From a virus (lineage: Duplodnaviria; Caudoviricetes): a stretch of 55,523 nucleotides of DNA. The translations under genes and the position numbers were made by a program. This document shows, one piece after another, positions 9,525 to 45,050 of the stretch (the first letter of the stretch is position 1; each line of letters begins with the position of its first letter). The stretch spans positions 1-55,523 of the IMG/VR virus record IMGVR_UViG_3300037462_000746; one strand, given 5' to 3'. The notes beneath the pieces are model-generated. The model did no database searches. It was not told where the DNA came from and saw only the letters and a program-made list of their open reading frames with translations.

Positions 9525-10214
9525 CTAAAAATCAGTTTTTGAAAGCGTTTTGATTTGCTCTTCAAACTTTTTCAAATTATCGCTATCAAATTCTTTAGAT
9601 TTATAATATTCAGAGGGGTCATCTAATATTCCAAGAATTGCAACGTCTTCGACGATGCAGATAACATTGCCGTTCATAGCTCTAGACGTTAATACGTTCA
9701 TAGATTTGAAATGAACATAATCTCCAAACGTACAAGGAGGACCAGAAATAAATTTTTCAGTCGAAAACGCTTGTTTACCAATTTTTATGACTTTTCCGAT
9801 GTGGTAGTCATCCCTCAGCTCCCCATGCGCATCCATAAGATTAAAGTTATGTTCGTAAGGAGCAATGACTAGACGAATGCCTTCGGGATCAAAGCAATCT
9901 AATCCAAATGCTTCTAATGATAAGTTTTTAATTTCTTCTTGCGTCCAAAAACGTCTGTTCCGTTGCTTATAATGATCGATTGGATAAAAAGGATCTGGGT
10001 TAAACAGTGGAGAGTCATGTCCCATTAACATAGGAAAAAGCGTATTAAATCGTTTGTCCATTACGTCCATTGTGCGGAAAAGTATAGAGTTTTCCTTTAC
10101 ATGATCATAGACTGGGTATGCGAAATTCTCTGGAAGGATTTTGTCTGTTTTAGATAAAAAGCCTGGTCGAACATCCTCTTGAATCTGTGTAATTTTTTGT
10201 GGTGAAGTCGTCAT
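9525..10214 (-). CDS. GroES/Cpn10-like co-chaperonin with long N-terminal extension
   Basis: RLVIAPY...GKVIKIG..AF...GP.C..GDYVHF...IVEDVAILGIL matches the phage Cpn10 pattern. Confidence 0.75.
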   Translation of the reverse strand: MTTSPQKITQIQEDVRPGFLSKTDKILPENFAYPVYDHVKENSILFRTMDVMDKRFNTLFPMLMGHDSPLFNPDPFYPIDHYKQRNRRFWTQEEIKNLSLEAFGLDCFDPEGIRLVIAPYEHNFNLMDAHGELRDDYHIGKVIKIGKQAFSTEKFISGPPCTFGDYVHFKSMNVLTSRAMNGNVICIVEDVAILGILDDPSEYYKSKEFDSDNLKKFEEQIKTLSKTDF

Positions 10215-10319: not shown

Positions 10320-12425
10320 ATGTATAATAAAGAGTATCCAATGCAAATGAACCAACAGTTTACACTTCAAGAGCCGGCGCAAGATTTCTTTGAAAACCTC
10401 CTTCTTAAAGCACCTCAAAACCTTTACGATGTCGAAGCAAAAATCAGTGAAATGCTCGATTATGAAATTCAAAATCGAACAGCATGGTTTGAGCGAATTC
10501 GTCAATCGATTGTTTCCCTAGGATTGACTGATATTTACACGCGAAGCATTCAGAACCCAGGAAACGTCAAGAATACTACGTATCTTGAATGTTGGTTGAA
10601 ACTTTTGAATACTTACACTTCCGAAATTTTTCAACCCATGAACTTATTAACCTATGAGATTAAATACTTATCCTTTTTGAATCAAAACGAAGAATTAAAG
10701 GCGCAAATTAATGATTTAGAGAATCTTGGCAAAACATCCACGGAAGCATTAAACTTAAATTTGTGTAAGCGTTGGTCGGAATTTGTCCCAGAGTTAAAAA
10801 AAATCATCTCATCCTGTTTTTTGACAGGTGGTGCAGTTTGCAAAGTTTTTTTTGACCCTACATTAAGACGACCCACTTTAAAATTGATTGAACCTGAAAA
10901 CTTTATTATTAATCCAAATGCATCATCCCTTGAAACGGCAGAGGAAATCTCGCATATATTTGAAATAGATGAAGAAAAACTCAATGAACTTCAAAGAAAT
11001 GGTATTTATTTAGATGTCGAATTATCTCCTAATGGAGAAGATTCAACAAACCAAGCAGGATCTGTAGAACGTACTCGCGAAACCGTAAATAACATAAAAT
11101 CACGCACCCAAGATGACATTGTTAAGAAATATCGCATCTGCGAAACTATTTTTATGGCGTTTCCTCATGAAGTTGGCGATGAATATGGAATGCAAATTTC
11201 GGGAGGGTGTAAAATGCCTTATAAAACGCATTTTCAACTTGGAACAAAGATTGCTTTGATGCGAAAGCGTTGCTGGTATCCCAACAAAGAAGAAATTACC
11301 AAAAAAATTGATATGGTGAAATTTACATATGTTCAAACAATGAATTTCTGGGGGCTTGGTTTAATACAATTGCTTGAAAATCTTCACAAAAATGCTAACT
11401 CTGTTCAAGATTCCCTCGATAAGGCAATGAAACTTGCTTACGAACCTACGGCTATTGCTTCATCTAACATCACTATTAACCAAGCCAATATGCGGATTCA
11501 GCCTGGATTCGTTAACGTGTTTAATGGGTATAATCCCGGTGACATGTTCCACCACATTGAATTTCCTCAACCTACGCCAATTTTCATGGAATACCTTAAT
11601 TTTATAGAAGGGAAGATGAAAACGATTACTTCAATATCTCAAATTAAAATGGAAAGTTTGCCTGCAAATATCAAAGCATCAGTTTTATTATCCTTGATGA
11701 TGGAAGATTCCAAGAGCATGTCGAGCGTTATGAGGCAAATGATTCAAAGTCTGAATGAACTTTTTGAAGTTGTAAAACAATTTATGATGAATGAAATGGG
11801 TGAAAGATATTTCATCAGCAAAGAGTTTAAGCTAAAAAATAAAGACATTTTTAAAGAAATTATCGACTACAAATCAACCGCAGATCCCAACTATTCAAAC
11901 CAAGCCATGCAGGTTATCTTGTATCAAACGATTTTTGAATATGCCGCAGCTCATCCCGAATTGTTTAAAATGGATGAACTGTATCGTAGATTTTTCAATG
12001 TTCTTAAAATTGTTAACATTGATGAAATTATGCTCACCCCTGAAGAGCTTCAAAAACAAAAACAAGATCAACAAACTATGGTCGACCAACAAAATCAGAT
12101 GCAACAAGCTCAAATTCAAATGCAGCAAGAGCAAATGCAAACTCAAAATCAACTTATGGATAAAGAACTTGAGATTACTGCTCAAAAGAATCAAATGGAA
12201 GCAGAAATTAAACAGCTTACGCTTGAAACCAATAAACAATTGGATGCGCTTAAAGTTCGCCATGAAGAAATTCACGACAAAGCTCTGCTTGAGCAGCAAA
12301 ACATGATTGAGGATGAAAAGAGAAAAGAAACAATTTTAAATTACATCATTAAAATGAAAGAGCTTGAATTGAAATATGGTATACAGATTAACATTGATCC
12401 ACAGAAAGAATTAAACGATGCCTAA
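10320..12425 (+). CDS. Portal protein (P22-like)
   Basis: 701 aa; GGAVCKVFFDP, IEPENFII, FWGLGLI, PG motifs; Q-rich C-terminal coiled coil. Confidence 0.85.
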   Translation: MYNKEYPMQMNQQFTLQEPAQDFFENLLLKAPQNLYDVEAKISEMLDYEIQNRTAWFERIRQSIVSLGLTDIYTRSIQNPGNVKNTTYLECWLKLLNTYTSEIFQPMNLLTYEIKYLSFLNQNEELKAQINDLENLGKTSTEALNLNLCKRWSEFVPELKKIISSCFLTGGAVCKVFFDPTLRRPTLKLIEPENFIINPNASSLETAEEISHIFEIDEEKLNELQRNGIYLDVELSPNGEDSTNQAGSVERTRETVNNIKSRTQDDIVKKYRICETIFMAFPHEVGDEYGMQISGGCKMPYKTHFQLGTKIALMRKRCWYPNKEEITKKIDMVKFTYVQTMNFWGLGLIQLLENLHKNANSVQDSLDKAMKLAYEPTAIASSNITINQANMRIQPGFVNVFNGYNPGDMFHHIEFPQPTPIFMEYLNFIEGKMKTITSISQIKMESLPANIKASVLLSLMMEDSKSMSSVMRQMIQSLNELFEVVKQFMMNEMGERYFISKEFKLKNKDIFKEIIDYKSTADPNYSNQAMQVILYQTIFEYAAAHPELFKMDELYRRFFNVLKIVNIDEIMLTPEELQKQKQDQQTMVDQQNQMQQAQIQMQQEQMQTQNQLMDKELEITAQKNQMEAEIKQLTLETNKQLDALKVRHEEIHDKALLEQQNMIEDEKRKETILNYIIKMKELELKYGIQINIDPQKELNDA

Positions 12426-15833: not shown

Positions 15834-15915
15834 GAAAAAAAAAGATTAATTTCAAGTTTTTTTTAAGGATGTGATTAAGACACACAACCCCATCTTGGCG
15901 CAGATGGGGTTTTTT
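15834..15915 (+). ncRNA. Possible sRNA 15 (weak promoter)
   Basis: Plus-strand terminator AACCCCATC/GATGGGGTT + T-run between two minus-strand genes; promoter match poor. Confidence 0.35.
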
Positions 15916-15916: not shown

Positions 15917-17674
15917 TTACCAAAAAGTGTTTGTTTCAAGAGGCATTGATCTTGGCGTAATGTCAATGCGAGGCAAAGCCGCAGCAATATCGTGAATCAT
16001 TCTTTCTTCTTCATAACGATTTACAAGTATTTTTCTCTGTTCCATAAAATCTAACGCTTGAGAAAACGTGTCAATCACATCTCGCGCTGCTTTTCCAGAG
16101 TTAGGAAAAGACGTACACGCATTAATAAATTTCTGACTAAAATGTGTGTATTCACCATTTAGATCTACAGGTAAATAGATCTTCCCAGATTCAATTAATG
16201 GCGTTATCTTAATTACGCGCGTTTCTTTGGCATCATCTTCTTTAGCAAACCCGCGTTCTGAAAGGGAAGTAGGTGTATACCCCACAATGTTATTGTGTTG
16301 CATCCGCCTTAAACACTGAATTAAATTTTTACCGTTGGCTTTTTCTTCAATAATTACAATATGTGGTTTTAGAACTCCATTCATATGCGCTTCACGTGTA
16401 AGTGAGTCGTCATAAATATTTTTGACCTGCATATTTAAAACTTTAAGAAGTTCTGGGAAATCAAGCCTATCATACCAAACATTTAACAATACGGCTGCTT
16501 TAGTGTGTTCGGATTCTCTGAAAATACCCCATGCAGTACTTGCGCTGAAGTCCGCATTCATATTAGAACTCATAGCCGTATCAACTGATAAAATCACCAT
16601 TTCCAATGAACTCATCATATGAAGATGGAATTTCCTAAACCAATCAAGCTTGATGATGTTTCCTTCTTTAGGTGTTGGATCTCCCTGATAAATAGAGTTA
16701 AAATCTGCAACCGAAATATTCTTTCTAATTTTTTCAATGCCTTTTTCGGTATATCTTGATGGACTAGTCACTTCATTTTTTGTTTTGCGATAGTCTTCCC
16801 AAATTAATTCCCCTGTGTAAGGGCTTATGATTTTACAATGTCGTTCTGGATCATACAGAAAGGGTATAACAACATAGGTGAGATCTTTATCCTTTTGTGA
16901 AAGGATTCGTCCAAATAAATCTTCATCATGGCTTCTATGCATCACACCTATCATAATAGATTCTTTAAAATTATCCCGCCGTCCGTAAAACACTTTTGTA
17001 AAAGTGTTCCATATTTTCTCTCGATGGGACTTGTAACGTATCTTAGTTAAGTCATTTGGGTCATCGATAAGTAAAACAGTGCCTCCTGACCCCGTTGCTG
17101 CGCCATCAAAACCTACCGCTCTTCGTGATCCTCCTTGATTTGTATGCGTCACTTCTTTGTTGTATTTTCTCAAGGACAAATCGCTACCAAAAAGATCTTT
17201 AAACTTTTTAGAGTTAATTAAATCTTGCATAGCGCTATTAAAACCTCTGGCATGGAAAGAACTATAGCTTGCTGTTAAAAAAGATAAACGTGGTTTATGC
17301 AATAGTAAAAAGGCTGGAAGAAGAATGCTAATTAATGTTGATTTACCCTCACGAAGAGGGGTGTGTATTAATACGTCGCCCAATTTACCCCGAATAATCG
17401 CATTGACGCATGCGCAAATTCCATCAATAGGAACGGATTCGGTAAAAGGGTTGCTTGTACCAGCTTCATCCCAAAAATATTTAGCGAACTCTTTAAAATC
17501 AAGCAAAAGCTTTTTTTTTAGAGCCTTTTTCTTTGGCTCATTTTGTAAATAATCTTTGAGGTTCTTTGCCTTTACAAAGGTGGCGTCAATAATCTTTTCA
17601 ATGGGTGATAAAGGTAACATTATTTTTATACTATAGCCCCAACATTTTATAGATTTTTTATTTGTTTGTAGCAT
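15917..17674 (-). CDS. terL: Terminase large subunit
   Basis: Walker A PLREGKS, Walker B LLIDDP, nuclease SVDTA, IEEKANG, DVIDTFSQAL; start may be 17620. Confidence 0.95.
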   Translation of the reverse strand: MLQTNKKSIKCWGYSIKIMLPLSPIEKIIDATFVKAKNLKDYLQNEPKKKALKKKLLLDFKEFAKYFWDEAGTSNPFTESVPIDGICACVNAIIRGKLGDVLIHTPLREGKSTLISILLPAFLLLHKPRLSFLTASYSSFHARGFNSAMQDLINSKKFKDLFGSDLSLRKYNKEVTHTNQGGSRRAVGFDGAATGSGGTVLLIDDPNDLTKIRYKSHREKIWNTFTKVFYGRRDNFKESIMIGVMHRSHDEDLFGRILSQKDKDLTYVVIPFLYDPERHCKIISPYTGELIWEDYRKTKNEVTSPSRYTEKGIEKIRKNISVADFNSIYQGDPTPKEGNIIKLDWFRKFHLHMMSSLEMVILSVDTAMSSNMNADFSASTAWGIFRESEHTKAAVLLNVWYDRLDFPELLKVLNMQVKNIYDDSLTREAHMNGVLKPHIVIIEEKANGKNLIQCLRRMQHNNIVGYTPTSLSERGFAKEDDAKETRVIKITPLIESGKIYLPVDLNGEYTHFSQKFINACTSFPNSGKAARDVIDTFSQALDFMEQRKILVNRYEEERMIHDIAAALPRIDITPRSMPLETNTFW

Positions 17675-17717: not shown

Positions 17718-18080
17718 ATGAAATCTGTCTTTATTCCGTTGGCGCTTCTTTCATCCTCTTTAGCCTCAAGTTCTCAAACCATAGAGGGTGATGAACGAAC
17801 TTATACCTCATTTAAAATTATCCATATTGATACCAACAATCAGGTATTGCCTGTTTTACCCCCAAATACACCTTTAGATGTTACGGGCGTCAATACCGAA
17901 AGAGCTTTGAGAAAATCTGCAAAACGAAAACGTTATACTGTTGTATACTACACCGAAGATTGGGAATTAGAATGGCTAAATTTTCTTAAAGTCATTCTTG
18001 AAGAAGTTCAAGATGTTCATCCTCCTTGCATTTTGGAAAAGCGGGAAACATACAATGCTCGAAGATTTTACAGCGAATAA
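17718..18080 (+). CDS. Hypothetical protein with signal peptide
   Basis: MKSVFIPLALLSSSLAS N-terminus; RBS AGGAG. Confidence 0.65.
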   Translation: MKSVFIPLALLSSSLASSSQTIEGDERTYTSFKIIHIDTNNQVLPVLPPNTPLDVTGVNTERALRKSAKRKRYTVVYYTEDWELEWLNFLKVILEEVQDVHPPCILEKRETYNARRFYSE

Positions 18081-18140
18081 ACTTTGATTAATTGTTAAAA
18101 ATTGCCTATCTTAATTTAACCATATAAAAAAAGAGATTAA

Positions 18141-19514
18141 ATGAGCGAATATGACGATGAATGTTTAAACGTTCTTCCCTTTGACAATTTTATGAAAGAT
18201 GCGACAAAAGAGTTTCTTTCTAATTTAATGAAGGAAACTTTTTCAGAAAAAGAATGCCCGGTTGAAGAGAGAGTCTTGATTGACAATGAAGTATTTTTAG
18301 ACAATGAGAAATGGATAAGTCTTCTTAAAAATATAGAGGTGAAAAATCCAATTCTTTATCCTAATTTGGGTAAACCTTATACCCACTATAAGCCCGAGCC
18401 AAAATTCGAGCATTATTATATGGTTTTGGAAAATTATTATGATGGATCACTAAAGCCTTTTGATCCGTGTATTTATTATGATTTGAAGCCAAATCAGAAA
18501 CTTATAACCTCTATCTATCTGAAAAGCGCACTCGAAGACTTAAGATGGAAGGATAAAACTGCTTGGATTGAAGTTCACTTGCACTTAATAAGACTCTTTT
18601 TAGACCCAAAACTCAATGAAAAAGAATCGGATGGAAATGAACATCAAGAAAGTGAGCATTGTTTTAAATACCAAATCATGACTTATTTTAATCAGTTTGG
18701 GAAACATTTCTTTTATGAAATCTTTAGCAAAACTGAAATGAAAAGATTTTTTCAACGGTTTGAAGATTTGGATACCCTCATAGAAGATGCTAAAAACTGC
18801 CATTTAATACCTGAATCTAGTTCCAAAAATTTTGATATCAAAGACCGCAAAGATGAGGCATTTTTAGAATGGGTTTCCCTTTATGTAACGCGGGACTATT
18901 TATCTGAGGAATTAAAGCTTTTCGAAAGTAGCTTACGATCACTTTCAAGCATGATGTTGTTGATGAACTATTTCACGGATGGCATTTTGGATGAGCTTAA
19001 ATTAGACAGTTCAGAAAAAGAATTTTTCACTACCATTTTTATATCTATGGATAAAGATACTAAAGGAAAAGATCAATCCTTTGTAAAAATGATCAAAAAT
19101 GCGTGTTTGCATCATTTGTATGATTTGCGCAGCACAATACTTTCGTCATTACGCGAAAGCCCACAGTTAATTGACCACATTCATTATGAAACCTCTCTCA
19201 TACGTAAAAAGTTTAAAAACTCTAACTATCCACAAATTAGCACGGAATATCTTCTTTTCAATTGGAATAACGTTGGTTTTGTGAGCTTAAATGACCCTTT
19301 AATTTATGATGATATTGCCTACCAACCTTTAATAACTAGGATTTTACAACAAAAGAAGTTTTATGAAGAAATAAGGACTAAAGTGTTTCGAAGTGCTAAA
19401 GAATTCTACTATATAAAGGCAAGAATTAATTTTAATACTCAATTAAATCGTAATGAAACTTTAGATCAAACAACGTTTCTTGAACCCCCATATTTAGGGG
19501 GCTATAAATTATAA
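18141..19514 (+). CDS. Hypothetical protein
   Basis: 457 aa ORF. Confidence 0.75.
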   Translation: MSEYDDECLNVLPFDNFMKDATKEFLSNLMKETFSEKECPVEERVLIDNEVFLDNEKWISLLKNIEVKNPILYPNLGKPYTHYKPEPKFEHYYMVLENYYDGSLKPFDPCIYYDLKPNQKLITSIYLKSALEDLRWKDKTAWIEVHLHLIRLFLDPKLNEKESDGNEHQESEHCFKYQIMTYFNQFGKHFFYEIFSKTEMKRFFQRFEDLDTLIEDAKNCHLIPESSSKNFDIKDRKDEAFLEWVSLYVTRDYLSEELKLFESSLRSLSSMMLLMNYFTDGILDELKLDSSEKEFFTTIFISMDKDTKGKDQSFVKMIKNACLHHLYDLRSTILSSLRESPQLIDHIHYETSLIRKKFKNSNYPQISTEYLLFNWNNVGFVSLNDPLIYDDIAYQPLITRILQQKKFYEEIRTKVFRSAKEFYYIKARINFNTQLNRNETLDQTTFLEPPYLGGYKL

Positions 19515-19880
19515 ATTTTCTTCGTTCTGCGGGGGAGTGTTAACAGAAATATCCCCTATTACTTGGATGCTTTCTATGCCGCTCTTGTAAATAACTTTGG
19601 GCTTTTTTACTGGGTCTAAGATGATAATATATCGATCAAAATGACTCACCTTTCCTGAAAACTCTTTTCCGCTTTGCATTTGAATTAAAATTTCAATTCC
19701 TTGATCTTTCATGCTTTCTAAAAACATGTCTTGTACTTTAGAGGTCTGTGAAATATTTACTGGTTTTTTTTTCTTGGCAGGCGCATTGAAAGATTTTTTG
19801 AATGCAGGTTTTGAATAGCCCATTCCAGGTCTAGATGTTTGCGGACGTTGAGGGTATTCGTTGTTTGGTTGGTATGCCAT
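19509..19880 (-). CDS. hfq: Hfq-family RNA chaperone (Sm/Lsm fold) with basic N-terminal extension
   Basis: VQDMFL...G...GKV..FDRY.I.L...VIYKSGI aligns with Hfq LQDPFL...GIKLQGQIESFDQFVILL...MVYKHAI; start ATG 19880 after AGAGG. Confidence 0.9.
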   Translation of the reverse strand: MAYQPNNEYPQRPQTSRPGMGYSKPAFKKSFNAPAKKKKPVNISQTSKVQDMFLESMKDQGIEILIQMQSGKEFSGKVSHFDRYIIILDPVKKPKVIYKSGIESIQVIGDISVNTPPQNEENL

Positions 19881-19941
19881 ATTTTCCTCTTTATGTTGAC
19901 TTTGTTTAAGTTTAATGAATATATATCTATAGTCAAGAAAA

Positions 19942-20643
19942 ATGAGGAACAAAGTGGTAAGTGAGGACTTTCCTGCCTTAGAAACGTTAGATGAATTAAT
20001 TCATTATTTTTTGAATATAGCTGAAGAGTATTCAAAAGCTGGCTTAATTAGTCTTGCTATTCAGGATAATTTGCTTTGGCATTGGCATAAAAATTTTAAG
20101 GTAATTATTCCACTATTAAAAAGGCTTAATTTAGAAGGGGATTTTTTGGTTCAGGATGAAGATCTTTTTAATCATGCAAAATCAACAAAAAAAATTGAAA
20201 AGATATTTCTTCTTGAGGCTGTTTATCAGATGGGGAAAATCATATTTACCCATCGAAACGAAAACAAAGATACGTATGTTTATCCCATTGTAGATCGTTT
20301 GATGTTCTATAGGCTTCAAACATTTTATAAACCAATAATAGATCATCCCGTTGATACTATCAAATTACATCAGCCGAAAATAGAAATCGATAAATCTGAA
20401 AAGTTTATACGCTATAAGGTAAAAGAATTTTTTATTCATATGGCTGCACCTGAAAATGAAGAAGAATATAATCTGATAATACACACAATATTAAACCTTA
20501 TCAAAAGCATCAAAATTCATGAAGACTCACCCATGGTAAACGAATGTAAAGAGTTGATATCTCTTTTAACACATATATTTGAGACGCCAAAAAGTAATGA
20601 TAAAAGCGAAACAAAACAAAAATCTTTGGAAAGAAAGGATTAA
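19942..20643 (+). CDS. Hypothetical protein
   Basis: 233 aa helical ORF, divergent from hfq. Confidence 0.7.
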   Translation: MRNKVVSEDFPALETLDELIHYFLNIAEEYSKAGLISLAIQDNLLWHWHKNFKVIIPLLKRLNLEGDFLVQDEDLFNHAKSTKKIEKIFLLEAVYQMGKIIFTHRNENKDTYVYPIVDRLMFYRLQTFYKPIIDHPVDTIKLHQPKIEIDKSEKFIRYKVKEFFIHMAAPENEEEYNLIIHTILNLIKSIKIHEDSPMVNECKELISLLTHIFETPKSNDKSETKQKSLERKD

Positions 20644-20646
20644 TTA

Positions 20647-21351
20647 ATGAGCCAAAATATTGAACTTAGTACCCCAAAGCCAGAAACTTCCGAAATGCAT
20701 GAAAACATGTTTAAGGAGATGACTCCCACCATTAATTATAACGATCTTGAAACATTACTTGGACAAATTTCTTTAGAAATGACGAACTTTGATGAGCTCC
20801 TTAAAGCTGTTATAGATAATGCAATAGACAAAAAAGAAGACATGTTTCCAGCATGTATAGGATTGCTCAAAAGATATCATCTTATTGAAAAGCTACATTT
20901 AGAGGTAGTGAACGCTAAACCTCAAGAAGAATATGCACGTTATGTATTAATGAGAATTTTTTTAGCGGCTTTGATGGCAGTTATTTTTGAAATATGTTTA
21001 TACAAAGAAGCAGGCGAATTGAAACCTCTGCGTCCATTTTACATGCTTTACGCAACTTGTTATATGAAGTTTAATAGCCCTAAGTTTCATTTTCCCGATG
21101 ATTTTATTCATGAATTTGCCTTTATGGAAGAATATGTGTCTTCTATTAATCCATGTTTGGGCGAGCCATTTTTCAAAAAAAGTTTATTTAAAGCGAGCGC
21201 ACAAGATGTAATAGATATAATAAAAGTCTTTATTGATGGATTAAAAACCATCAAAAAACGGTCATATGCTCAAAAAAAAGACACCGATACACTAAAATAC
21301 ACTTATCCATATGTATCGTTTATGTACGAACCTAAGCAACAATCTAATTAA
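20647..21351 (+). CDS. Hypothetical protein, paralog of next gene
   Basis: Extensive similarity to 21367-22107. Confidence 0.8.
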   Translation: MSQNIELSTPKPETSEMHENMFKEMTPTINYNDLETLLGQISLEMTNFDELLKAVIDNAIDKKEDMFPACIGLLKRYHLIEKLHLEVVNAKPQEEYARYVLMRIFLAALMAVIFEICLYKEAGELKPLRPFYMLYATCYMKFNSPKFHFPDDFIHEFAFMEEYVSSINPCLGEPFFKKSLFKASAQDVIDIIKVFIDGLKTIKKRSYAQKKDTDTLKYTYPYVSFMYEPKQQSN

Positions 21352-21366
21352 TGAAAGGATTAATCT

Positions 21367-22107
21367 ATGAAAGAAATTGAAGTATCTGTCCAGGTAGATC
21401 CTGGAAATCCAGGAATTCGTGAAATGTATGAAAAAGTATTTAAGGAAAACCCTCCTGCCTTAGATTATGATGAGCTTGCAATCATAATGGAACAAATAGC
21501 TTTAGAACTGAAAAACATAGAGGAGCTCGTTTCAGCTGTTATCAACAATACAGTGAAAAAAAAAGAAAGCATGCTTCCAGTTTCTGTAGGGTTGCTTAAA
21601 AAACATAAAATTATTGATAAGCTTCCTTTGATGGCGAAGAAGGCAAAAGATAAAGAGGGTTATACGCGTTATGTATTGGTGAGAATGTTCATATCTTCTA
21701 TCATGTGTGACATTTTTGCTACAGGATGGTACGAGGAAGAAGGAAAATTAAAACCTTTGCTTTCGCTTTACATGCTATATTCAACCTGCTACAAAAAGTT
21801 TGATGACCCTAATTTCGTCTTTGCAATGAATTTTGAAGAAAAATTTATTGCTCTTGAAAAATATGTATCCGATATTAAGCCTTTTCTCGATGAGCCACAC
21901 CTTAAAAAATGCATATTGAAATTAAATGGTGAAGACTTTAACGCTCTCTGCGAAGTTTTCATTGCAGCATTAAAGGAAACCAAGGAATGTGTAGAAGTTT
22001 CTGAAAAAGAGAGCGATTCATCAAAGAACATCTATCCAAAAATATCGTTTATAGACAATGCTCTTTTCATTCTTCAATCTTTTGTGAGTACTTTTACTGA
22101 AGCATAG
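21367..22107 (+). CDS. Hypothetical protein, paralog of previous gene
   Basis: Shared Y.RYVL.R.F, G.LKPL...YMLY.TCY.KF. Confidence 0.8.
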   Translation: MKEIEVSVQVDPGNPGIREMYEKVFKENPPALDYDELAIIMEQIALELKNIEELVSAVINNTVKKKESMLPVSVGLLKKHKIIDKLPLMAKKAKDKEGYTRYVLVRMFISSIMCDIFATGWYEEEGKLKPLLSLYMLYSTCYKKFDDPNFVFAMNFEEKFIALEKYVSDIKPFLDEPHLKKCILKLNGEDFNALCEVFIAALKETKECVEVSEKESDSSKNIYPKISFIDNALFILQSFVSTFTEA

Positions 22108-22136
22108 GTATTAAGTAATAAAAGGGTTAAAAAGGC

Positions 22137-22781
22137 ATGAATATAGATACCTTAGAAGGATATGCAAGAGCTGTTCATCGATGTCTGGAAAAAACATTTA
22201 AAGTGCATCTGGAGTTTTTAGAAGGAACTCCAGAAAAATTATCGAAGCTTTGTTTAATTGGTCCCTGGTTTTACAGGGAATTGTATGAAGCGTTAACCCC
22301 CCTTTATGAAAAGTTTTGCAACCAAAAAAGTAAAAAGCTTTTAGATGATTCTATCTATAAAGAGTTTAAACCTAAGATAAAGCGCATCTTAAAAAGCCTT
22401 TTGTTAAAAGAGATTATATACAAAAAAAAAGGTGATGTTCTTTTGTACGATGATGCCATTATCTTAAATGCCAAAAAAGACGTACTTAAAATCTTTTTTA
22501 AAGGAAAACCTTTGTCTGAAGATAAAAAAGCTTACAAATCTTTGCCTGACCAAGAGAAGGTATATACTTTATTAATAAAGGCGACAGAGGATGAATTTAC
22601 ATCTTATTTGGTGAAAACAGTGTTAATGCTTAAATCATGGGTCAATGAGTTAACTCAAGAAAACATAAATTTACAATCGTTGGTGATTACGAATGTATGT
22701 ATGCTCATTAACAAGTTAATTGATATTCTTACCTTATTTGAGAACCAAAGTTTGTTTAACTTTTTTCATGAGGAGAAATAA
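22137..22781 (+). CDS. Hypothetical protein
   Basis: 214 aa ORF. Confidence 0.7.
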   Translation: MNIDTLEGYARAVHRCLEKTFKVHLEFLEGTPEKLSKLCLIGPWFYRELYEALTPLYEKFCNQKSKKLLDDSIYKEFKPKIKRILKSLLLKEIIYKKKGDVLLYDDAIILNAKKDVLKIFFKGKPLSEDKKAYKSLPDQEKVYTLLIKATEDEFTSYLVKTVLMLKSWVNELTQENINLQSLVITNVCMLINKLIDILTLFENQSLFNFFHEEK

Positions 22782-22818
22782 GATACAATGGTTTTAGTCA
22801 ACAACAACAATAACAAAA

Positions 22819-23820
22819 ATGACGACACAAATTATTCAAACTCGAATCGACCCAATAGTACCTGCCAATGCCTCACTTAATGTAATTGAGATCAACGCAC
22901 AAAACACACCCGTTCAACTTATTTACCCGACTACATTCATTCAAAGTCCATATTATTTAGCGGCGGCTATTATAATAACTCAGCCTATAGGATTTTCAGA
23001 TGGAACGTTGGTTATGCCAAACGCATTGCAAATACCACAAAGTATCGTTTGTCAATTCATCAACACATCTGCCTCTCCCTTTACACTTCTTAATTTTGAA
23101 GGAGAGGTTATAAGGGTCATAGAACCCGGTAAAATGATCCTTTTGTATATGTTACCTTCGTCCAATCCTCCAACCCCAGCAGGTAATTTCTATACTGCTG
23201 AAATTGGGGCTGGCTCTTCAGGTCAAGATCCTGCTGCCCTTGCAGGGTTTGGACTCATAGCATTGGATAATAATAAACTAAATTGTTTTATAGAAAGCAA
23301 TGTTTTCGACGTACCTTTTGTATTAACAAATGACTTTGATGCTTCATTGATCACTTGGACAGGTGGAACGTATACCATTGACCTTGATACGTTAGCATCA
23401 CCAATTCCAGGTTTCTATTGCATGGTCAAAAACGCATCACCTTCAGTTTTAACCCTTCAAGCTTCCAACATAGACGGCGGAACAACCATTGATTTAATTC
23501 CAAATCAATCGTGTATTATTGTTTATGATAATACTTTTTCTAATTGGAAAACCGTTGGTTTAGGGTCATTTTCTTTTGGAAATGCCGTGCAATTTACATC
23601 CACTGGCATACGATTAACCAATGGTTCTGCAACCAATCCTTCGTTGGCGTACATTGCTGATCCAAGCACGGGTTTATTTTCTAAGGGTACAAGCGATGTG
23701 TCTATCACTAACTCTGGTGCAGAATCGATCAGTTTCACGCAAGAAGGCCCTGTTTTAATTGTCGGAAACTATATGCTGGGAGGAGATCTTTTACTAGAGT
23801 ATGCAGGCATTTACCCATAG
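22819..23820 (+). CDS. Putative tail/virion structural protein
   Basis: Beta-rich; GSATNPSLAY..DPSTGLF motif common in tail fibres. Confidence 0.6.
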   Translation: MTTQIIQTRIDPIVPANASLNVIEINAQNTPVQLIYPTTFIQSPYYLAAAIIITQPIGFSDGTLVMPNALQIPQSIVCQFINTSASPFTLLNFEGEVIRVIEPGKMILLYMLPSSNPPTPAGNFYTAEIGAGSSGQDPAALAGFGLIALDNNKLNCFIESNVFDVPFVLTNDFDASLITWTGGTYTIDLDTLASPIPGFYCMVKNASPSVLTLQASNIDGGTTIDLIPNQSCIIVYDNTFSNWKTVGLGSFSFGNAVQFTSTGIRLTNGSATNPSLAYIADPSTGLFSKGTSDVSITNSGAESISFTQEGPVLIVGNYMLGGDLLLEYAGIYP

Positions 23821-23829
23821 GAGTAAAAA

Positions 23830-25404
23830 ATGAGCGTATATTCTAACCCTTTAGGTGAGTTTGCAAGGGCAATTCCGATCCAATCGGGTGCTAACCTTGA
23901 TATGACCAAGTTTTCTTCAACGATGTGGATAGATTCCCAACACACAAGATGGGATAATGGGTATCCACGAAAAATGGGAGGAAGGCAGCTTGTAGATTTC
24001 GGAAATGATTCAATTGCACGAGCCATTTACGTCAACATCGTAGACGACAATCGACGTTATATTTTGATGAAAGACAACTCCATCATACAAATTGATGTAA
24101 ACCCGGAGGGAAATATAACAGCCATTCGAAATCGGACACCCGTTGGTTGGGAATTACCCGAAGCAGGCAATAATTATAATTATTCCTTTACTGAATTTTC
24201 ACGCACTACGACCAATGATGGTATAATTGCTTCTCTTGTGTTTTTTTTCTTTGTGCCCCTTGAAAACGCCAAAAACCCATTAACAAATAAAGAAAAACAA
24301 ATTTATTTTGGACGTATCGATCAAGATACGCCATTTATACCTTATGAGGCATTTGTTGCAGACAATCCTACTCAAAAACCTGTTAAAACTTCAGGGGGTG
24401 TTATTGAATCAACTCAAAGGTTAATTATTTATGGAAATGGGGGGCTAATTTACTATACCGAAGTAAATAATTTTGATGTGATTCCAATTGCAAACATTTC
24501 TGCGGGGGGGTCATTAAAAATACTTGCGGCAAGACCATACCGCGGGTCAATTTTGTTTTGGTCGCCAGAGGTGTTGTTTGGAGGCACCTTTACATCCCTT
24601 GGATTAAATCTCGAACGACTTACAAGCATGACCATTGTAAGTCCTACATCCATTATAGATGGAAGAAATTCAACCTATTACTGGATGGGCTTAAATCAGA
24701 TGTATGCCTTTAACGGAGCGCTTCAGACTTTCCAAAACGATAATAACCGCAATTATTTATACGAAAAGTTGAATCGCAATTACTTAGGAAACTGCTGGGG
24801 AATGTTCTTAGAAAGTTTCACTGAGCTTGCATGGTTTGTGCCACAAAACGATGACAAAGAGGCATCGCTTTGTATTATACACAATATGGAAGAAAAAACA
24901 TGGTATAAAACCATTCTAAATAGGTCATGTGGACTGACTACGGGTGTAGCACCCTACCCTGTAATGGGTGATAACCAATTTCTTCCTGGCTTTCTTCAAA
25001 ACAATTATCCTATTTGGTATGAAGACAAAGGTTTAAATCAAGTCATCGAAGGTATTGCCTACCCAATTGAGGCTTGGGTTGAGTCGAACATGTTTAGGAC
25101 ATACCTTGATAGTGTTCAAGCTAATCTTGCAGTTGTGTTAAGACGTTTGGAGAAGAATATTAATCAAATAGGAGATATGTACCTTGAGGTTAAGTATTAC
25201 AATTATCCTGACTCAGAAGCCTCTACCCTAGACCCTATAGTATTTCAACCCTCCACAACAAACATTAACTTTTCCCTAGAATCCAGTATTTTTAGTTTCA
25301 AATTTGTTTCAAACACTATTGATGGATTTTATCAATTTGGACCGTTGGTGATTAACTACCAAAACGGAAATGCAAGACCTACGGTTTCTTTTACAGGTGA
25401 ATGA
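23830..25404 (+). CDS. Putative tail hub/tubular (DNA-stabilization, P22 gp10-like) protein
   Basis: W.D...RW..G.PRKMGG N-terminus, YWMG...Y.FNG, WF.P motifs. Confidence 0.65.
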   Translation: MSVYSNPLGEFARAIPIQSGANLDMTKFSSTMWIDSQHTRWDNGYPRKMGGRQLVDFGNDSIARAIYVNIVDDNRRYILMKDNSIIQIDVNPEGNITAIRNRTPVGWELPEAGNNYNYSFTEFSRTTTNDGIIASLVFFFFVPLENAKNPLTNKEKQIYFGRIDQDTPFIPYEAFVADNPTQKPVKTSGGVIESTQRLIIYGNGGLIYYTEVNNFDVIPIANISAGGSLKILAARPYRGSILFWSPEVLFGGTFTSLGLNLERLTSMTIVSPTSIIDGRNSTYYWMGLNQMYAFNGALQTFQNDNNRNYLYEKLNRNYLGNCWGMFLESFTELAWFVPQNDDKEASLCIIHNMEEKTWYKTILNRSCGLTTGVAPYPVMGDNQFLPGFLQNNYPIWYEDKGLNQVIEGIAYPIEAWVESNMFRTYLDSVQANLAVVLRRLEKNINQIGDMYLEVKYYNYPDSEASTLDPIVFQPSTTNINFSLESSIFSFKFVSNTIDGFYQFGPLVINYQNGNARPTVSFTGE

Positions 25405-25646
25405 TGAAACTTAATGTTCCGTTGCCTGGAAAACTTGAGTTCAAGGATTGGGCAGAAAAATTCATTGCGAATTATCCAAATTCTGGTATATCTTTACCAA
25501 GAGAAAATCAAGATTGGTCAGAATGGGGACAGCTTCTCATGTCAGTACCAGAATTTAAGACGATTCCAAATCCTTTAAAATCTATGTACAAAGATGATTG
25601 GCAAAGCTGGGCAATCTTGATGATCTCTACAAAAAGGGATTCCTAA
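25401..25646 (+). CDS. Small conserved-looking phage protein
   Basis: Trp-rich 81 aa, coupled to tail hub gene. Confidence 0.6.
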   Translation: MMKLNVPLPGKLEFKDWAEKFIANYPNSGISLPRENQDWSEWGQLLMSVPEFKTIPNPLKSMYKDDWQSWAILMISTKRDS

Positions 25647-25975
25647 TGGACTTGCACCTTAAAACTTTGAAAGACTTTAAAAATGATCTTATTAAAATGC
25701 GCGATCAATCCTTAGATCGATTTATTTTCAGTGAATTATCCGATAAAGAAATCCACGAAATCAGAGGTATGGTATTGGGGATATCAAAAATACTATTAAA
25801 CTTACAAAATATCCTTGATGACTATTTAAAAAACTCTGATTTACCCTATAATTTACGAATCCTCGAAGAAGAAGCCAAGAAGTATAATATTGGCATGTCT
25901 GATTCTGGGGCTGAATTGAAAGGAAAATACAATGAAAACTCATCCAATCATATCAAATATGAACATATTTATTAA
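25646..25975 (+). CDS. Hypothetical protein
   Basis: Start MDLHLK by TAATG coupling. Confidence 0.6.
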   Translation: MDLHLKTLKDFKNDLIKMRDQSLDRFIFSELSDKEIHEIRGMVLGISKILLNLQNILDDYLKNSDLPYNLRILEEEAKKYNIGMSDSGAELKGKYNENSSNHIKYEHIY

Positions 25976-26273
25976 ACTTCTTAAAATCAATAAGGAATTT
26001 CTTAAACTTCGCAAAGAAAAAATTCGCTTACGCTTTGGCAGGTATATCTCTGAAAGCATCCCAATTAAATTTCTTATTCTTGCTCAAATATGCCTTTTTC
26101 TAGCATTAGGTCATGAAAAGCATCTAGATAGCTATATCAAAATTTTTGGTCAAGCATCTTATCAAACATTTTTAGTATGGATAGCTGGGCTATTTATAGG
26201 TGCTTATTTTTCAGAATTAAACATCTATTTAAAAGATGCAGAAGCCAATGATTGGCGCGCACCCGATTTTTAG
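25932..26273 (+). CDS. Small membrane protein (2 TM)
   Basis: Two hydrophobic segments. Confidence 0.5.
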   Translation: MKTHPIISNMNIFIKLLKINKEFLKLRKEKIRLRFGRYISESIPIKFLILAQICLFLALGHEKHLDSYIKIFGQASYQTFLVWIAGLFIGAYFSELNIYLKDAEANDWRAPDF

Positions 26274-26281
26274 GGAAAACT

Positions 26282-26584
26282 ATGTTATTTGAAGCAACTA
26301 AAATAGTCTTAAATGAGTGTAAGTTTAGATTCATATCAGAGCTAGTTAACGACCTTTTTACCAATAAGTTTTTCGTAAGTCTATTAATGATTCATAGCGT
26401 TTTAGAACAACTTTCTTTCGACTTTGTAAAACTCGACAAAGTTGTTAATATTAAATGTATATTATTCTGCTATGCCATTGGGGTTTCAGTTAGAATTTTC
26501 ATAGAGCTTTTAAAGGATGCACAACATAGGGTTCAAGTACGCATATGGTGTGAAGAATTGGATAAAAAGAATGACTTTAACTAA
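26282..26584 (+). CDS. Small membrane protein
   Basis: ATG 26282 after AGGGA; hydrophobic segments. Confidence 0.5.
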   Translation: MLFEATKIVLNECKFRFISELVNDLFTNKFFVSLLMIHSVLEQLSFDFVKLDKVVNIKCILFCYAIGVSVRIFIELLKDAQHRVQVRIWCEELDKKNDFN

Positions 26585-26768
26585 AGCTATAATGTCTATC
26601 CCAATATTCATAGCTTTCATAGCGAATGGTATAAGTTTAATTCCTTTCGCTATGCCCCATGAATACGACTTACATCGATGGGAGAAAAAACAACTTATGA
26701 TAGTCTTATTTTATTTCATGACGAACCTTCTAAGCGCATATGCAGGGGTTTGTTTAATATTATTTTAA
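26571..26768 (+). CDS. Small membrane protein (2 TM), holin candidate
   Basis: 65 aa, two hydrophobic segments. Confidence 0.5.
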   Translation: MTLTKAIMSIPIFIAFIANGISLIPFAMPHEYDLHRWEKKQLMIVLFYFMTNLLSAYAGVCLILF

Positions 26769-26779
26769 GGAGATCAATA

Positions 26780-26947
26780 ATGCACAACCGTTTAGAAGCA
26801 GTTTTTGTAGGATTGCTTGGGTCAGTTCTTTTGCTCAATCTCTCTATATATACAAGAACGGACAAGCAGGAAATAATTAATGCAATTATGCTTTTACTTT
26901 TTGCAATTCTGCTCAAAATAATACACGATTTAAGGAAAAAAGACTGA
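26780..26947 (+). CDS. Small membrane protein (2 TM, basic C-terminus), holin candidate
   Basis: ATG after AAGGAG; 55 aa ending LRKKD. Confidence 0.55.
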   Translation: MHNRLEAVFVGLLGSVLLLNLSIYTRTDKQEIINAIMLLLFAILLKIIHDLRKKD

Positions 26948-26950
26948 AAA

Positions 26951-27040
26951 ATGAGCGAAAATGAAAAAAATAAATTAAAGTTGGCTTTGGTATCGATTGC
27001 ATCGATAATCATTCAATATTTGATGGTTTTTGGAGGATAA
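26951..27040 (+). CDS. 29-aa single-TM peptide
   Basis: MSENEKNKLKLALVSIASIIIQYLMVFGG, abutting neighbours. Confidence 0.4.
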   Translation: MSENEKNKLKLALVSIASIIIQYLMVFGG

Positions 27041-27142
27041 ATGCAAACACTCTATGAAATTGATCATGCTTTAGGGCTTGTTTATTTTATAACCATTGAA
27101 GCATATATACTGTATACAATTATTAAATCATTGTTAGATTAA
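27041..27142 (+). CDS. 33-aa single-TM peptide
   Basis: ATG after GGAGG; MQTLYEIDHALGLVYFITIEAYILYTIIKSLLD. Confidence 0.45.
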   Translation: MQTLYEIDHALGLVYFITIEAYILYTIIKSLLD

Positions 27143-27207
27143 CCTTTAAGTTTCTTACTTTTTCAAGGTATACTATCTCATAATAATAATAAAAAAAAGG
27201 TTTTCAA

Positions 27208-29040
27208 ATGGCTTATATTTTTGACCTTCCACAAACCATAGGTGTGGATGCGGGTGAAACGCATGATGGTGCGATTTTAGGTACTTTTTCTCGAAAAGAT
27301 TACAACGGTATTTCGTTTTATTCTCAATACCATGAGTTTCAATATGCAGTCATAAATGGCTCTTTAACCGATCCTGATCAGCAAGAGTGGATTGAGGTTC
27401 AAGATGCGTTTAATTCGGGGACTGCCCAAGATCTTTTTACTCCTGGAGTTGATCCCAATTACAATTTTAAAACCCTCTATATTTCATATCGAGACGGCAT
27501 CGATGGCTATCGCTTTAATTGTACAACAGAAGCAACAGGCACATTTACCTTTGTTGTAGAATATAACTCACCTACTGGCTATATCACTTTGCCGGGAGCG
27601 GTTTTGAGCGCTAATTTCTTACAAGAATTAGGAGATGGAAATACATTAACTTTAGGGACTATCCCAACTAACTGGCAAGAAGATTATATTGGAATACCCA
27701 ACATACCACGTCAAAAATGGCTTCGAATTCGTGTAGCCACAGGAACTGTAACAGGACCTGCAACAATAACAGGTGCATGGGCAAAATCAGCAGTTCCAGA
27801 AGATGACATTACCCCTGGCGCAGCAAATCCTCCGTTCTATAATCCTTATGGCAACAGACTTATTACTGAAGGGGATATTTTATATTTTAGCTCGCAATAT
27901 AAAAATGGGTTGATGAACTTTGCATATACTACACCGTTGGTGGGTGATTTAAGTTATCTTTATTCAAAGGTCGATGGTACGTTTGGCGTCCTTGAAATTC
28001 AGTCTGATTTATCGTCTAACTGGAACTATGCAAATAACTTAACAGTAGATGCAACAAACCTTGTAGCAGCAGGCGCAGGCGCAACAATCAGCAGTGTTGA
28101 AGGATTATATGGCAATTGTTACGTTGAAGCAGAGTGTGCAGCTACGCCAACAGCAACTACGAATCAATGGTTGTTAGGATTATCTAACGCCCAGACGGGT
28201 ACAATCAAATATGGCTTGTTTATGACCTTTGTAGCAGGAACGCCTCGTTATCAAGTGATTATTGATGGGTCGTTGGTATTTACGACTCCGGCAGATTTTG
28301 GGTTTTATAATGACGTTCAAATTTGGCGATATAATGGTATAGTTTACTTCTTTGCAGGCGGCAAATCGTTTGGATCTGTGGTTGAAGTACCCGATAATGA
28401 TTTATTATATGTAAGGGTCGTTGGTACGGACAATGCAGTTGAAATTAACAATGTTAACTTCGTGGATTGGAGTTCTTCAAGGTATGCTAAACCTATCGCA
28501 TTAACATGGACAGAAAATACGGATTTTGACCCTCCTGCCCCATCTACCATTACCAAGGATTATCCTGCAATGTATTCCATTGCGTTCAATACGCCTGATG
28601 ATTTTGCCCCCCTTACAGCAGAATTATCGAAAACAGGGGTAGCAGGGTATAATATTGGAATTGTGAATATGACAACTCCAACTCAAGATCCAGTCCTAAT
28701 GTTAGAAAATTATATTGGGTGTGATGATCCGGATAACACCCTTTTCAAAACTGGAACACAAACGATTATTAATTTTTCCAACCTGATCACACAAAATACG
28801 GATGAGGGAGCATATATTGATCCAATATACCGAGGAGCGTTCACCTATATCATCAAAAACAGCGTTGGCGGACATGCACGTGTGGCTATGTTTTTTGATA
28901 ATAGCGCAGAACGAAATAATATTTGTGTAGCACCCATAGTCCCTAAAATAGGAGTGACGGATATAGGAATAATACAAGTGGGCTTCCAAAAAGAAGATCA
29001 ACTTGTCGGCAACCCTTCCGAAATTTCAATTTCAACATAA
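27208..29040 (+). CDS. Putative receptor-binding/tail protein
   Basis: 610 aa, T/G/A-rich beta protein with lectin-like central segment; next to tail fibre. Confidence 0.55.
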   Translation: MAYIFDLPQTIGVDAGETHDGAILGTFSRKDYNGISFYSQYHEFQYAVINGSLTDPDQQEWIEVQDAFNSGTAQDLFTPGVDPNYNFKTLYISYRDGIDGYRFNCTTEATGTFTFVVEYNSPTGYITLPGAVLSANFLQELGDGNTLTLGTIPTNWQEDYIGIPNIPRQKWLRIRVATGTVTGPATITGAWAKSAVPEDDITPGAANPPFYNPYGNRLITEGDILYFSSQYKNGLMNFAYTTPLVGDLSYLYSKVDGTFGVLEIQSDLSSNWNYANNLTVDATNLVAAGAGATISSVEGLYGNCYVEAECAATPTATTNQWLLGLSNAQTGTIKYGLFMTFVAGTPRYQVIIDGSLVFTTPADFGFYNDVQIWRYNGIVYFFAGGKSFGSVVEVPDNDLLYVRVVGTDNAVEINNVNFVDWSSSRYAKPIALTWTENTDFDPPAPSTITKDYPAMYSIAFNTPDDFAPLTAELSKTGVAGYNIGIVNMTTPTQDPVLMLENYIGCDDPDNTLFKTGTQTIINFSNLITQNTDEGAYIDPIYRGAFTYIIKNSVGGHARVAMFFDNSAERNNICVAPIVPKIGVTDIGIIQVGFQKEDQLVGNPSEISIST

Positions 29041-29056
29041 TAAAGGAATACGAATT

Positions 29057-32517: not shown

Positions 32518-33165
32518 TTAACTAACTTTAGGATTAATATTTTCATCAGTTTTACCAAGAAGATTTGTTTGCAAGGCAAGATTCGCCAAATCTTTCATCT
32601 TTTCAAAATGATAATCCGCTAAAGTCTGGTTTCGAAGCGCTAAAAACGCATAGTAATAACTTGCTTGAAGCAAAAGTGCTGGATACGTTTTGGTTAACCA
32701 GTTTTGTTGATTCGTTGAATCTAAGGGACTTATCAATATATGATATCTTAATGTATATGAATACACACCATTATTCGTTAAAGGTGCTCCGATGGGTGCA
32801 AAGAGGAAAAATTGGTCTTCCGCTTCATTGGAATAAAATTCAGGAATGCCTATGATAGAATCGTTGTTTTGGATAAGGCGTACGTAGCCGTAGTTGCGTC
32901 GTTTTAAAATATATGTTTTATTGTTTTCATCGGGGTTGGTAATAGATAAGGATACTGTATATAGCCAATCAAACGGTTTTTGTATTAAGTTAGCTCCTGG
33001 TGGGATTTCACCAAAAACAGTTTTCTCTGCTTGTAAGACGTTTAATCTAAGTTGAACTTCTGCGCATGCATCACGAATGATTTTTGGAATTTGAAGCACA
33101 AAATTAGGTTCATTTCCTTTGGTGGTAATAAATTTAATTTGCTCCACTAATTCATCATACGTCAT
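32518..33165 (-). CDS. Putative head-tail adaptor protein
   Basis: MTYDELV..I...; G.PEFY; NWL...YP.LLL pattern. Confidence 0.6.
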   Translation of the reverse strand: MTYDELVEQIKFITTKGNEPNFVLQIPKIIRDACAEVQLRLNVLQAEKTVFGEIPPGANLIQKPFDWLYTVSLSITNPDENNKTYILKRRNYGYVRLIQNNDSIIGIPEFYSNEAEDQFFLFAPIGAPLTNNGVYSYTLRYHILISPLDSTNQQNWLTKTYPALLLQASYYYAFLALRNQTLADYHFEKMKDLANLALQTNLLGKTDENINPKVS

Positions 33166-42769: not shown

Positions 42770-42793
42770 TTTGGATCTCCTATCCGTTGGTTT

Positions 42794-43219: not shown

Positions 43220-43240
43220 TCTTTTACTCCTATTCGTTGG

Positions 43241-43651: not shown

Positions 43652-43677
43652 AATGGATCTCCTATCCGTTGGTTTCT

Positions 43678-44091: not shown

Positions 44092-44113
44092 AATGGATCT
44101 CCTATCCGTTGGT

Positions 44114-44515: not shown

Positions 44516-44544
44516 GATATAGACTCCAATTTGTTTACATCCTT

Positions 44545-45014: not shown

Positions 45015-45050
45015 ATTGACTTACCACTTCTTCAAGTATATTTTCATTAT

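Follow-up and report, generated by a model that had tools for sequence, protein, structure and literature searches.

In many bacteria, Hfq is the central chaperone of small RNAs; it was first discovered as a phage host factor. In E. coli numbering, uridines are held in a pocket made of Q8, Q41, F42, K56 and H57, with H57 and Q41 on the proximal face (PMC4337610, PMC10628458), and H57 is said to favor RNA over DNA (PMC10628458). Adenine sites on the distal face are formed by Y25, L26, N28, I30 and T61 (PMC10628458), and a rim patch of R16, R17, R19 and K47 catalyzes annealing (PMC3753642, PMC4337610). In the E. coli protein, G4 and Q5 contact rim-bound uridines in the RydC complex (PMC4337610), and RNA and the acidic C-terminal tail vie for the basic rim (PMC10628458, PMC5606850). 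Our literature search, which left subscription full texts outside, returned no paper on a phage with its own sequence-level Hfq, and a broader search returned only fold-level ‘LSm-like’ or ‘Hfq-like’ phage proteins. Here, we analyzed a virus record of 55,523 bp (IMG/VR record IMGVR_UViG_3300037462_000746; ‘the window’ refers to this whole stretch) and found that the gene at 19509..19880 on its minus strand encodes a true Hfq-family Sm protein.

Family membership, fold and lineage

We compared the protein encoded by this gene (P0001, the window protein) to sequence profiles and known structures. A hidden Markov model search matched it to the Pfam Hfq family PF17209 above the cut-off of 27 bits, with a score of 48 (E 9.3e-13, residues 49–106), covering profile positions 1–58 of 64, and bore out the membership claimed by the original prediction, which had been made from the letters alone; the genome-level scan gave 49.1 bits. 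A sequence search of the PDB matched 35 distinct Hfq sequences (best E 1.5e-5), and BLASTP against E. coli K-12 Hfq found 25% identity over 57 residues (E 4e-8). The eukaryotic and archaeal LSm profile PF01423 stayed below its gathering score (16 bits versus 23.4), PF21979 gave no match in the Pfam scan at E ≤ 10, and no PHROGs family matched at E ≤ 0.001.

An AlphaFold2 (AF2) model, built from an 8-sequence alignment, contains an N-terminal helix at residues 48–60 followed by five strands. The predicted local distance difference test (pLDDT) score is 83–89 in the core block and mostly below 50 over residues 1–43 and 118–123. Foldseek searches of the PDB with this model returned 147 matches at E ≤ 0.001, and the best 50 of the 147 were all Hfq; the top matches had template modeling (TM) scores by target of 0.76–0.89 and root-mean-square deviations of 1.1–3.6 Å. 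The Sm fold on which the original prediction hinged is thus present in the model. A complex prediction with four copies of residues 44–123, for which no controls were run, gave scores of 0.10 and 0.09 against a mark of 0.42 and was counted neither way. The gene and its parts are as follows.

19509..19880, minus strand: Hfq-family gene, 123 codons plus the stop TAA at 19509-19511; coding part 19512-19880
19740..19880, minus strand: N-terminal tail, codons 1-47, predicted disordered, rich in Lys, Pro, Gln and Asn, net charge about +8 to +9
19557..19739, minus strand: Sm core, codons 48-108, with helix 48-60 and strands 63-68, 73-80, 84-87, 95-98 and 102-108 (AF2)
19512..19556, minus strand: short acidic C-terminal tail, codons 109-123, net charge -3
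19886..19890, minus strand: Shine-Dalgarno-like AGAGG, read from the sequence

The frame is intact and has a ribosome-binding site, with the AGAGG motif located 5 nt upstream of the start codon ATG 19880 on the minus strand. A start at TTG 19952 would extend the frame upstream, but we preferred ATG 19880 because the relatives in the family alignment share the start pattern M-A/T/E/S-Y.

The window is rated 100% complete, and a direct terminal repeat of 152 nt indicates that the record is a complete genome. The phage origin of the gene is supported by this completeness, by the terminal repeat, by the genes for the large terminase (TerL), the portal and the tail, and by a homologue in a second complete phage. 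DNA context was available for two relatives, on a 58,026-bp viral record (L002) and on a 1.5-kb metagenome contig (L005). L002 has direct terminal repeats, is rated 100% complete and encodes a homologue of 113 amino acids that is 46% identical to the window protein. Between the two phages, the TerL is 70% identical and two structural proteins of 524 and 610 amino acids are 69% and 71% identical, and for the flanking TerL and structural genes together the range is 68–72%. The genes directly flanking hfq have no counterpart between the window and L002, and we conclude from the shared hfq and the unshared flanking genes that hfq is kept while its neighbors turn over.

The family is small. A word-indexed search of 5.8 billion clusters found six other proteins, at 61–79% identity. 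A profile search of 1.84 billion representatives at 50% identity gave 371 matches at E ≤ 0.001, only five of them at E ≤ 1e-10, and the family consists of three clusters among these representatives (P0004, P0008 and the fragment P0009). Outside the family, the nearest matches have two Hfq domains and E values of 1e-11 to 1e-10; ordinary Hfqs come next, from 1e-7 upward. Tandem two-domain Hfq proteins among these nearest matches are about 140–200 amino acids long (P0010-P0015, P0021, P0025, P0029, P0033, P0035, P0043, P0051, P0053 and P0087), and two or more Sm domains occur in 16 of 158 proteins.

The copies on L002 and L005 differ by 18 synonymous and 7 non-synonymous changes, with a ratio of non-synonymous to synonymous substitution rates (dN/dS) of 0.09, and 40 alignment columns are invariant over eight members down to 50% identical. 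The hfq-like gene is under purifying selection. In a quick tree of 81 columns, where 109 of 181 inner branches are unresolved, the window’s 10-member family lies apart (Shimodaira–Hasegawa-like approximate likelihood ratio support of 95 for the split of the two labelled groups). Four long-branch rows (P0062, P0082 and two P0150 domains) also attach to the family and were treated as unreliable. The gene belongs to an Hfq lineage that branches deeply, is specific to phage and has its tails arranged the other way round, and it is located beside packaging and structural genes.

RNA-binding surfaces and tails

We aligned E. coli K-12 Hfq (b4172, taken from NC_000913.3) with eight family members using MAFFT and examined the residues of each RNA-binding surface. 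Columns invariant across E. coli and the eight members are, in E. coli numbering, Q8, D9, F11, L12, G29, G34, F39, D40, I44, L46, Y55, K56 and I59. In the window protein, the changes are R16K, R17D, R19G, Y25Q, I30K, F42Y and H57S, to which the alignment adds K31E, Q41R, K47D, S38H and S60E; positions 16–19 read K-D-Q-G. Each residue that the original prediction had called kept (Q8, D9, F11, G29, G34, F39, D40, Y55 and K56) or changed was reproduced. Across all 10 family members, Q8, D9, F11, L12, G29, G34, D40, Y42, Y55, K56, S57 and I59 are identical, as are Q18, H38, E60 and S61, and F39 is found in nine.

The three surfaces have fared differently. In the uridine pocket, Q8, Y42 and K56 are kept throughout the family, position 41 is R (L in two members) and position 57 is S, so that the Sm2-type Y-K-H motif retains Y55 and K56 with H57 replaced by S in 10 of 10 members. 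At the distal adenine sites, the window protein has Q, M, S, K and S at positions 25, 26, 28, 30 and 61, and the family varies at 25 (Q/H/R), 26 (M/T), 30 (K/D/E), 31 (E/T/V) and 32 (F/H). On the rim, positions 16, 17, 19 and 47 are K, D, G and D in the window protein, with one of the four basic, and they vary in the family as K/Q, D/S/A/N/T, G/D/N/E and D/G. Among 164 other Sm domains, drawn from the 150 best representatives and biased toward the query, 121 have Y or F and 5 have Q at position 25, and 128 have H and 16 have S at position 57.

By these alignments, the proximal pocket appears mostly, not wholly, kept. The original prediction of a conserved proximal face stands for Q8, Y42, Y55 and K56 and falls at positions 57 (H57S) and 41 (Q41R), which leaves it about three-quarters true, while its claim of altered distal and rim surfaces extends to the whole family, with positions 16, 17, 19, 25, 30, 31 and 47 variable. 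As a structural reading, its interpretation is partly supported. Selection thus appears to hold the pocket, including the unusual S57 and the family-specific H38 and E60, and to have released the A-site and the arginine rim.

Loss of canonical residues on two of the three RNA surfaces, together with H57, could also be expected of a decaying passenger, that is, a captured host hfq drifting toward loss of function, and scores under the NCBIfam equivalog cut-offs would fit such decay. The low dN/dS of 0.09, the 40 columns invariant across eight members, the intact frame with its ribosome-binding site and the retention of the gene in two complete phages with differing neighboring cargo genes all oppose it, and we consider decay highly improbable.

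We also compared the tails. In nine of nine full-length members the N-terminal tail is 47–54 residues long and carries a net +8 to +9. The core, at -1 to +1, is neutral, and the C-terminal tail has 6–15 residues and is acidic (-1 to -4). In E. coli Hfq, the corresponding parts are a 6-residue N-terminal end (+1), a core of +3 and a 36-residue C-terminal tail (-4). The basic N-terminal extension noted in the original prediction is therefore real, at 47–48 residues with a net charge of about +9, and is predicted to be disordered. Its residues K24, P25, K29, K37, K38, V41, T46 and S47 are invariant in eight of eight members, and E120 of the C-terminal tail is invariant among the seven closest members.

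Further analysis of the alignment suggests where the tail would exit. The counterparts of E. coli G4 and Q5 are T46 and S47, and a lysine cluster lies directly N-terminal to them; because G4 and Q5 touch rim-bound RNA, the lysine cluster would leave the ring beside the rim. It is a reasonable inference that the tail replaces the arginine rim, since the lysine cluster is conserved and adjoins the G4/Q5-equivalent residues. By analogy, an interplay between the acidic C-terminal tip and the basic N-terminal tail like that of E. coli Hfq is possible, as pure inference.

A conserved but strongly altered Hfq with a long lysine-rich N-terminal tail suggests that this phage supplies the cell it enters with an RNA-handling protein of its own. 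In our best reading, for which we see about an even chance, the phage encodes an Sm ring for U-rich RNA, and the basic N-terminal tail stands in for the arginine rim. The core would assemble into an Hfq-type ring, and the pocket of Q8, Y42 and K56, with F39 and Y55 kept, would bind U-rich single-stranded RNA; the distal A-tract site and the rim arginine patch would be gone. From each subunit, a disordered N-terminal tail of about 47 residues (+8 to +9) would exit at the rim side of the proximal face and supply non-specific nucleic-acid affinity, and perhaps annealing, as the rim arginines do in enterobacterial Hfq. The short acidic C-terminal tail may compete with RNA for the basic N-terminal tail. 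During infection, the ring would act on U-rich phage RNAs by binding, protecting or pairing them, without relying on any host Hfq, with terminator tails, antisense transcripts and small RNAs as candidate targets.

A retained uridine pocket without the parts that pair small RNAs with mRNAs (the distal A-site and the rim arginines) is also decoy-like. The protein could be a host-directed antagonist that takes U-tailed small RNAs away from host Hfq by competition or, with lower probability, joins host subunits in mixed rings, and in doing so disables the host’s small-RNA stress responses during infection. In both phages the gene forms its own transcription unit on the strand opposite to its neighbors, an arrangement that accessory host-takeover genes often have. 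Nevertheless, we judge an antagonist unlikely. It needs a host with Hfq, and the host may lack one; the conserved, strongly basic tail would be superfluous for a simple decoy; and 20–27% identity to E. coli Hfq, together with differences in beta-4 and beta-5 (S57, G58 and E60), makes mixed rings doubtful. At that identity, mixed rings with host Hfq, as in the hexamer poisoning suggested by the original prediction, would be less likely than competition for RNA.

Several observations weigh against the favored reading of a U-rich RNA-binding ring with a substitute rim. The window protein missed the cut-offs of all three NCBIfam Hfq equivalogs (TIGR02383, NF001602 and NF010691), scoring 38.8 versus 61.7, 33 versus 95 and 28 versus 270. 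The pocket does not appear intact, because H57 is always S and Q41 is replaced by R or L, and the preference for RNA over DNA is consequently uncertain. A bypass of host Hfq presumes that the host has one, and it may not. Basic N-terminal extensions are also not unique to the family: 13 of 130 single-domain representatives have at least 30 extra residues with a charge of at least +5, in a set that is biased toward the query profile and where some extensions may be start-codon miscalls.

The family is a natural experiment on where an Sm chaperone keeps its basic surface: the uridine pocket does not change, the distal face and the arginine rim can vary, and a basic disordered tail has arisen at the terminus opposite to the one that bears the tail in enterobacterial Hfq. 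Should this tail restore the capture or annealing of RNA, it would follow that an Sm chaperone can have its catalytic basic surface relocated to a disordered arm.

The phage genome around the gene

We scanned 51 long open reading frames (ORFs) of the window with Pfam and 30 with PHROGs. The recognized features are listed below; beyond these, nearly all of the genes had no match in the Pfam scan.

1-152 and 55372-55523: direct terminal repeat, 152 nt, 99% identity, from sequence self-comparison
10320-12425, plus strand: portal
15917-17674, minus strand: TerL
23830-25404, plus strand, and 32518-33165, minus strand: virion proteins
29003-30145, plus strand: tail-fiber chaperone domain
30630-32453, minus strand: Cpn60/GroEL-type chaperonin (Pfam 146.6 bits)
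53420-54757, minus strand: tape-measure-like protein

A 229-amino acid protein at 9525-10214 on the minus strand has a weak GroES-like PHROGs match (E 4e-4). The hfq-like gene is the sole minus-strand ORF in the plus-strand run 17718-30145, in agreement with the isolated position first described for it. The homologue in L002 is likewise opposite in strand to both of its neighbors, and it lies upstream of TerL on TerL’s strand.

This location raises the question of a DNA-directed role, in which a ring with lysine-rich tails would serve as a nucleoid or condensing protein or as a genome-packaging accessory. In both phages, hfq is the nearest same-strand gene upstream of TerL, at 1.8 kb in the window and 0.56 kb in L002. 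The small terminase is usually located directly upstream of TerL, and none was recognized among the scanned long ORFs. The tail is rich in Lys, Pro and Ala and may resemble the DNA-binding tails of the histone H1 type. Position 57 carries S in place of the residue said to favor RNA over DNA (PMC10628458), and DNA transactions have been reported for E. coli Hfq (PMC4963395, PMC12029325). Against such a role, opposite-strand genes lie between hfq and TerL in both phages and exclude a shared operon, it is in the uridine pocket that residues are invariant, and the missing small terminase means little when nearly all of the phage’s genes lack a family match. The window protein itself had no small-terminase match in PHROGs or Pfam, and we know of no Sm-fold small terminase. 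Overall, a DNA-directed role has a small chance of being correct. A slightly smaller chance goes to its more specific form, an Hfq ring re-tooled for DNA by the loss of H57, the histidine that reads the 2′-OH, and by six lysine-rich tails per ring, which might act as a TerL partner or as a genome-condensing packaging accessory.

We also examined the DNA flanking the gene for expression signals. The divergent neighbor is on the plus strand and starts at 19942, and two candidate signals were found.

19909..19936, minus strand: weak promoter-like site, TTGACT-16-TAAACT, 9 of 12 positions matched, within the divergent gap of 61 bp
19483..19503, minus strand: 7-bp G+C-rich hairpin without a clear U-tract, 6 nt past the stop

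Near the hfq-like gene, five promoter-like sites were found compared to 7.2 expected from shuffles, and the site listed is a lead only. The hairpin (-14.4 kcal/mol, z -1.96) is marginal, with 10 of 200 shuffles equally good; it was not called by the terminator scan, and it overlaps the 3′ end of a convergent 457-amino acid gene. Among sequencing runs, the stretch occurs in one DNA run with the label wetland metagenome, perhaps the window’s own source, and in no RNA run listed; we drew neither habitat nor expression from it.

Elsewhere in the window, a strong terminator-like hairpin on the plus strand at 15886-15911 has 10 pairs followed by TTTTATT. It lies between two minus-strand genes, TerL and a 425-amino acid replication-initiator-like gene, and could end an antisense transcript. 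At 42368-44121 on the minus strand, a 38-nt upstream element is present in three copies (at 42761, 43643 and 44083) and carries the ribosome-binding site of small minus-strand genes of 133–147 amino acids that lie in a row and may be a paralogue array.

An 842-bp gap without genes, 44516-45356, lies between minus-strand genes and has three plus-strand hairpins, each trailed by a U6-U8 tract, whose approximate positions are 44983-45009, 45224-45259 (fold z -4.0) and 45340-45387. A promoter-like site is located upstream of each, delimiting candidate small RNAs of about 100–210 nt. No plus-strand ORF longer than 49 amino acids was found in the gap, and it has no DNA match in the sister phage L002. 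An Rfam search of the entire window matched no family at the gathering thresholds, and 44400-45500 gave only sub-threshold, chance-level matches. These hairpin units are possible ligands of the phage Hfq and are given as leads.

The host was approached from several sides. The TerL is at most 29% identical to those of cultured phages, which infect many unrelated hosts. Pattern searches of 185,579 species genomes yielded no confirmed relative of the Hfq family (34 pattern matches) or of the TerL (83 pattern matches). A tRNA search of the window found none, and its G+C content is 32–39%. A simple pattern found Shine-Dalgarno-like motifs before 33 of the window’s 59 long ORFs, and these argue only against hosts that do not use such motifs.

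Comparison with known Hfq and Sm-like proteins

We investigated whether other viral records carry hfq. The window protein matched one of 50,697 phage records, MT835489.1 (L004; ‘UNVERIFIED: Bacteriophage sp.’), and we rejected its stretch 2679-4264 as a phage Hfq. It encodes a canonical 85-amino acid Hfq directly after a miaA-like 311-amino acid ORF, which matches the same places as E. coli MiaA in four loci; because bacteria have their genes in this miaA-hfq order, the stretch probably comes from a host. With E. coli Hfq as the query, seven phage records matched: two 501-kb Salmonella contigs, MT835489.1, two contigs of ‘Acinetobacter phage MD-2021a’ and two Staphylococcus records. Judged by size and identity, most look like host DNA, and no convincing Hfq was found in the records of cultured phages.

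We next scanned 2.9 million IMG/VR contigs for canonical Hfq motifs by a pattern that required YKHAIST, and identified 23 loci, five of them in plain host context with miaA or hflX adjacent. Two others (L021 and L022) encode Hfq with a long glycine-rich C-terminal tail, which we take to be typical of Acinetobacter-type host Hfq. The neighborhoods of four loci were inspected.

L010, 3445-6802: canonical hfq with ParB as a neighbor
L015, 3414-11256: canonical hfq with a CI/S24 repressor, an ERF recombinase and a DnaB-like helicase as neighbors
L024, 5202-9529: canonical hfq with a VapE-like protein as a neighbor
L027, 4255-6267: canonical hfq with an integrase as a neighbor

In these four loci, canonical hfq genes encoding 70–92 amino acids ride in early or lysogeny regions of temperate-phage-like contigs, an arrangement for which our literature search found no description. 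The canonical viral-contig Hfqs (L010, L013-L015, L017, L024-L030 and others) are 70–93 amino acids long with YKHAIST and, unlike the window protein, have no N-terminal tail; they lie in early or lysogeny regions, whereas the window gene is near TerL. In the quick, poorly resolved tree, they scatter among the cellular Hfqs. Phage-borne Hfq itself is consequently not new with the window, whose family is an altered form of it. If the tail does restore RNA capture or annealing, phage biology would gain a first example of a virus that brings along an Hfq-type RNA matchmaker. The window gene also points to phage-borne RNA chaperones as an unstudied class, with canonical hfq in temperate phages as a wider theme.

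Compared to enterobacterial Hfq (E. coli and Salmonella), the window protein has the same fold, with its best structural matches at TM 0.83–0.89, but K-D-Q-G in place of the RRER-type arginine patch on the rim. Relative to E. coli, Y25Q, I30K and K31E alter the distal face, and H57S and Q41R alter the pocket. The polarity of the tails is inverted: E. coli Hfq has a short N-terminal end and a 36-residue C-terminal tail with an acidic tip, whereas the window protein has a long basic N-terminal tail and a short acidic C-terminal one. The bacterial miaA-hfq-hflX context is absent at the window gene.

The Gram-positive Hfqs (S. aureus, B. subtilis and L. monocytogenes) are similarly strong sequence matches in the PDB (E 8e-5). 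S. aureus Hfq resembles the window protein in having Tyr at 42, Lys at 16 and a poor rim, ‘KANQ’, and the B. subtilis rim, ‘RKEN’, likewise has reduced basic residues (PMC3753642, PMC10628458). Unlike the window protein, the Gram-positive proteins keep an aromatic residue at 25 and H57 and lack the long basic N-terminal tail. Clusters of N-extended cellular Hfq-like proteins of 114–142 amino acids (Hfq_1/Hfq, mostly Acidobacteriota by Atlas labels) are the nearest by language-model features (score 0.92–0.93), a lead only.

Among phage proteins, GoF of T4 and also its MotB.1 and Frd.2 share with the window protein a small Sm-type barrel and a suspected post-transcriptional role, and the three differ greatly from one another in sequence (PMC12152347). 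Mycobacteriophage Adephagia gp39 was called Hfq-like from its predicted structure (PMC11373665). The BFVD contains further Sm-like phage proteins, such as one of Gordonia phage Waits (TM by target 0.78), and an ‘Hfq-like domain-containing protein’ that Mycobacterium phages Tonenili and Phabba encode. The T4 and Adephagia proteins were recognized by predicted fold only, whereas the window protein is recognized by its sequence, above the Pfam threshold.

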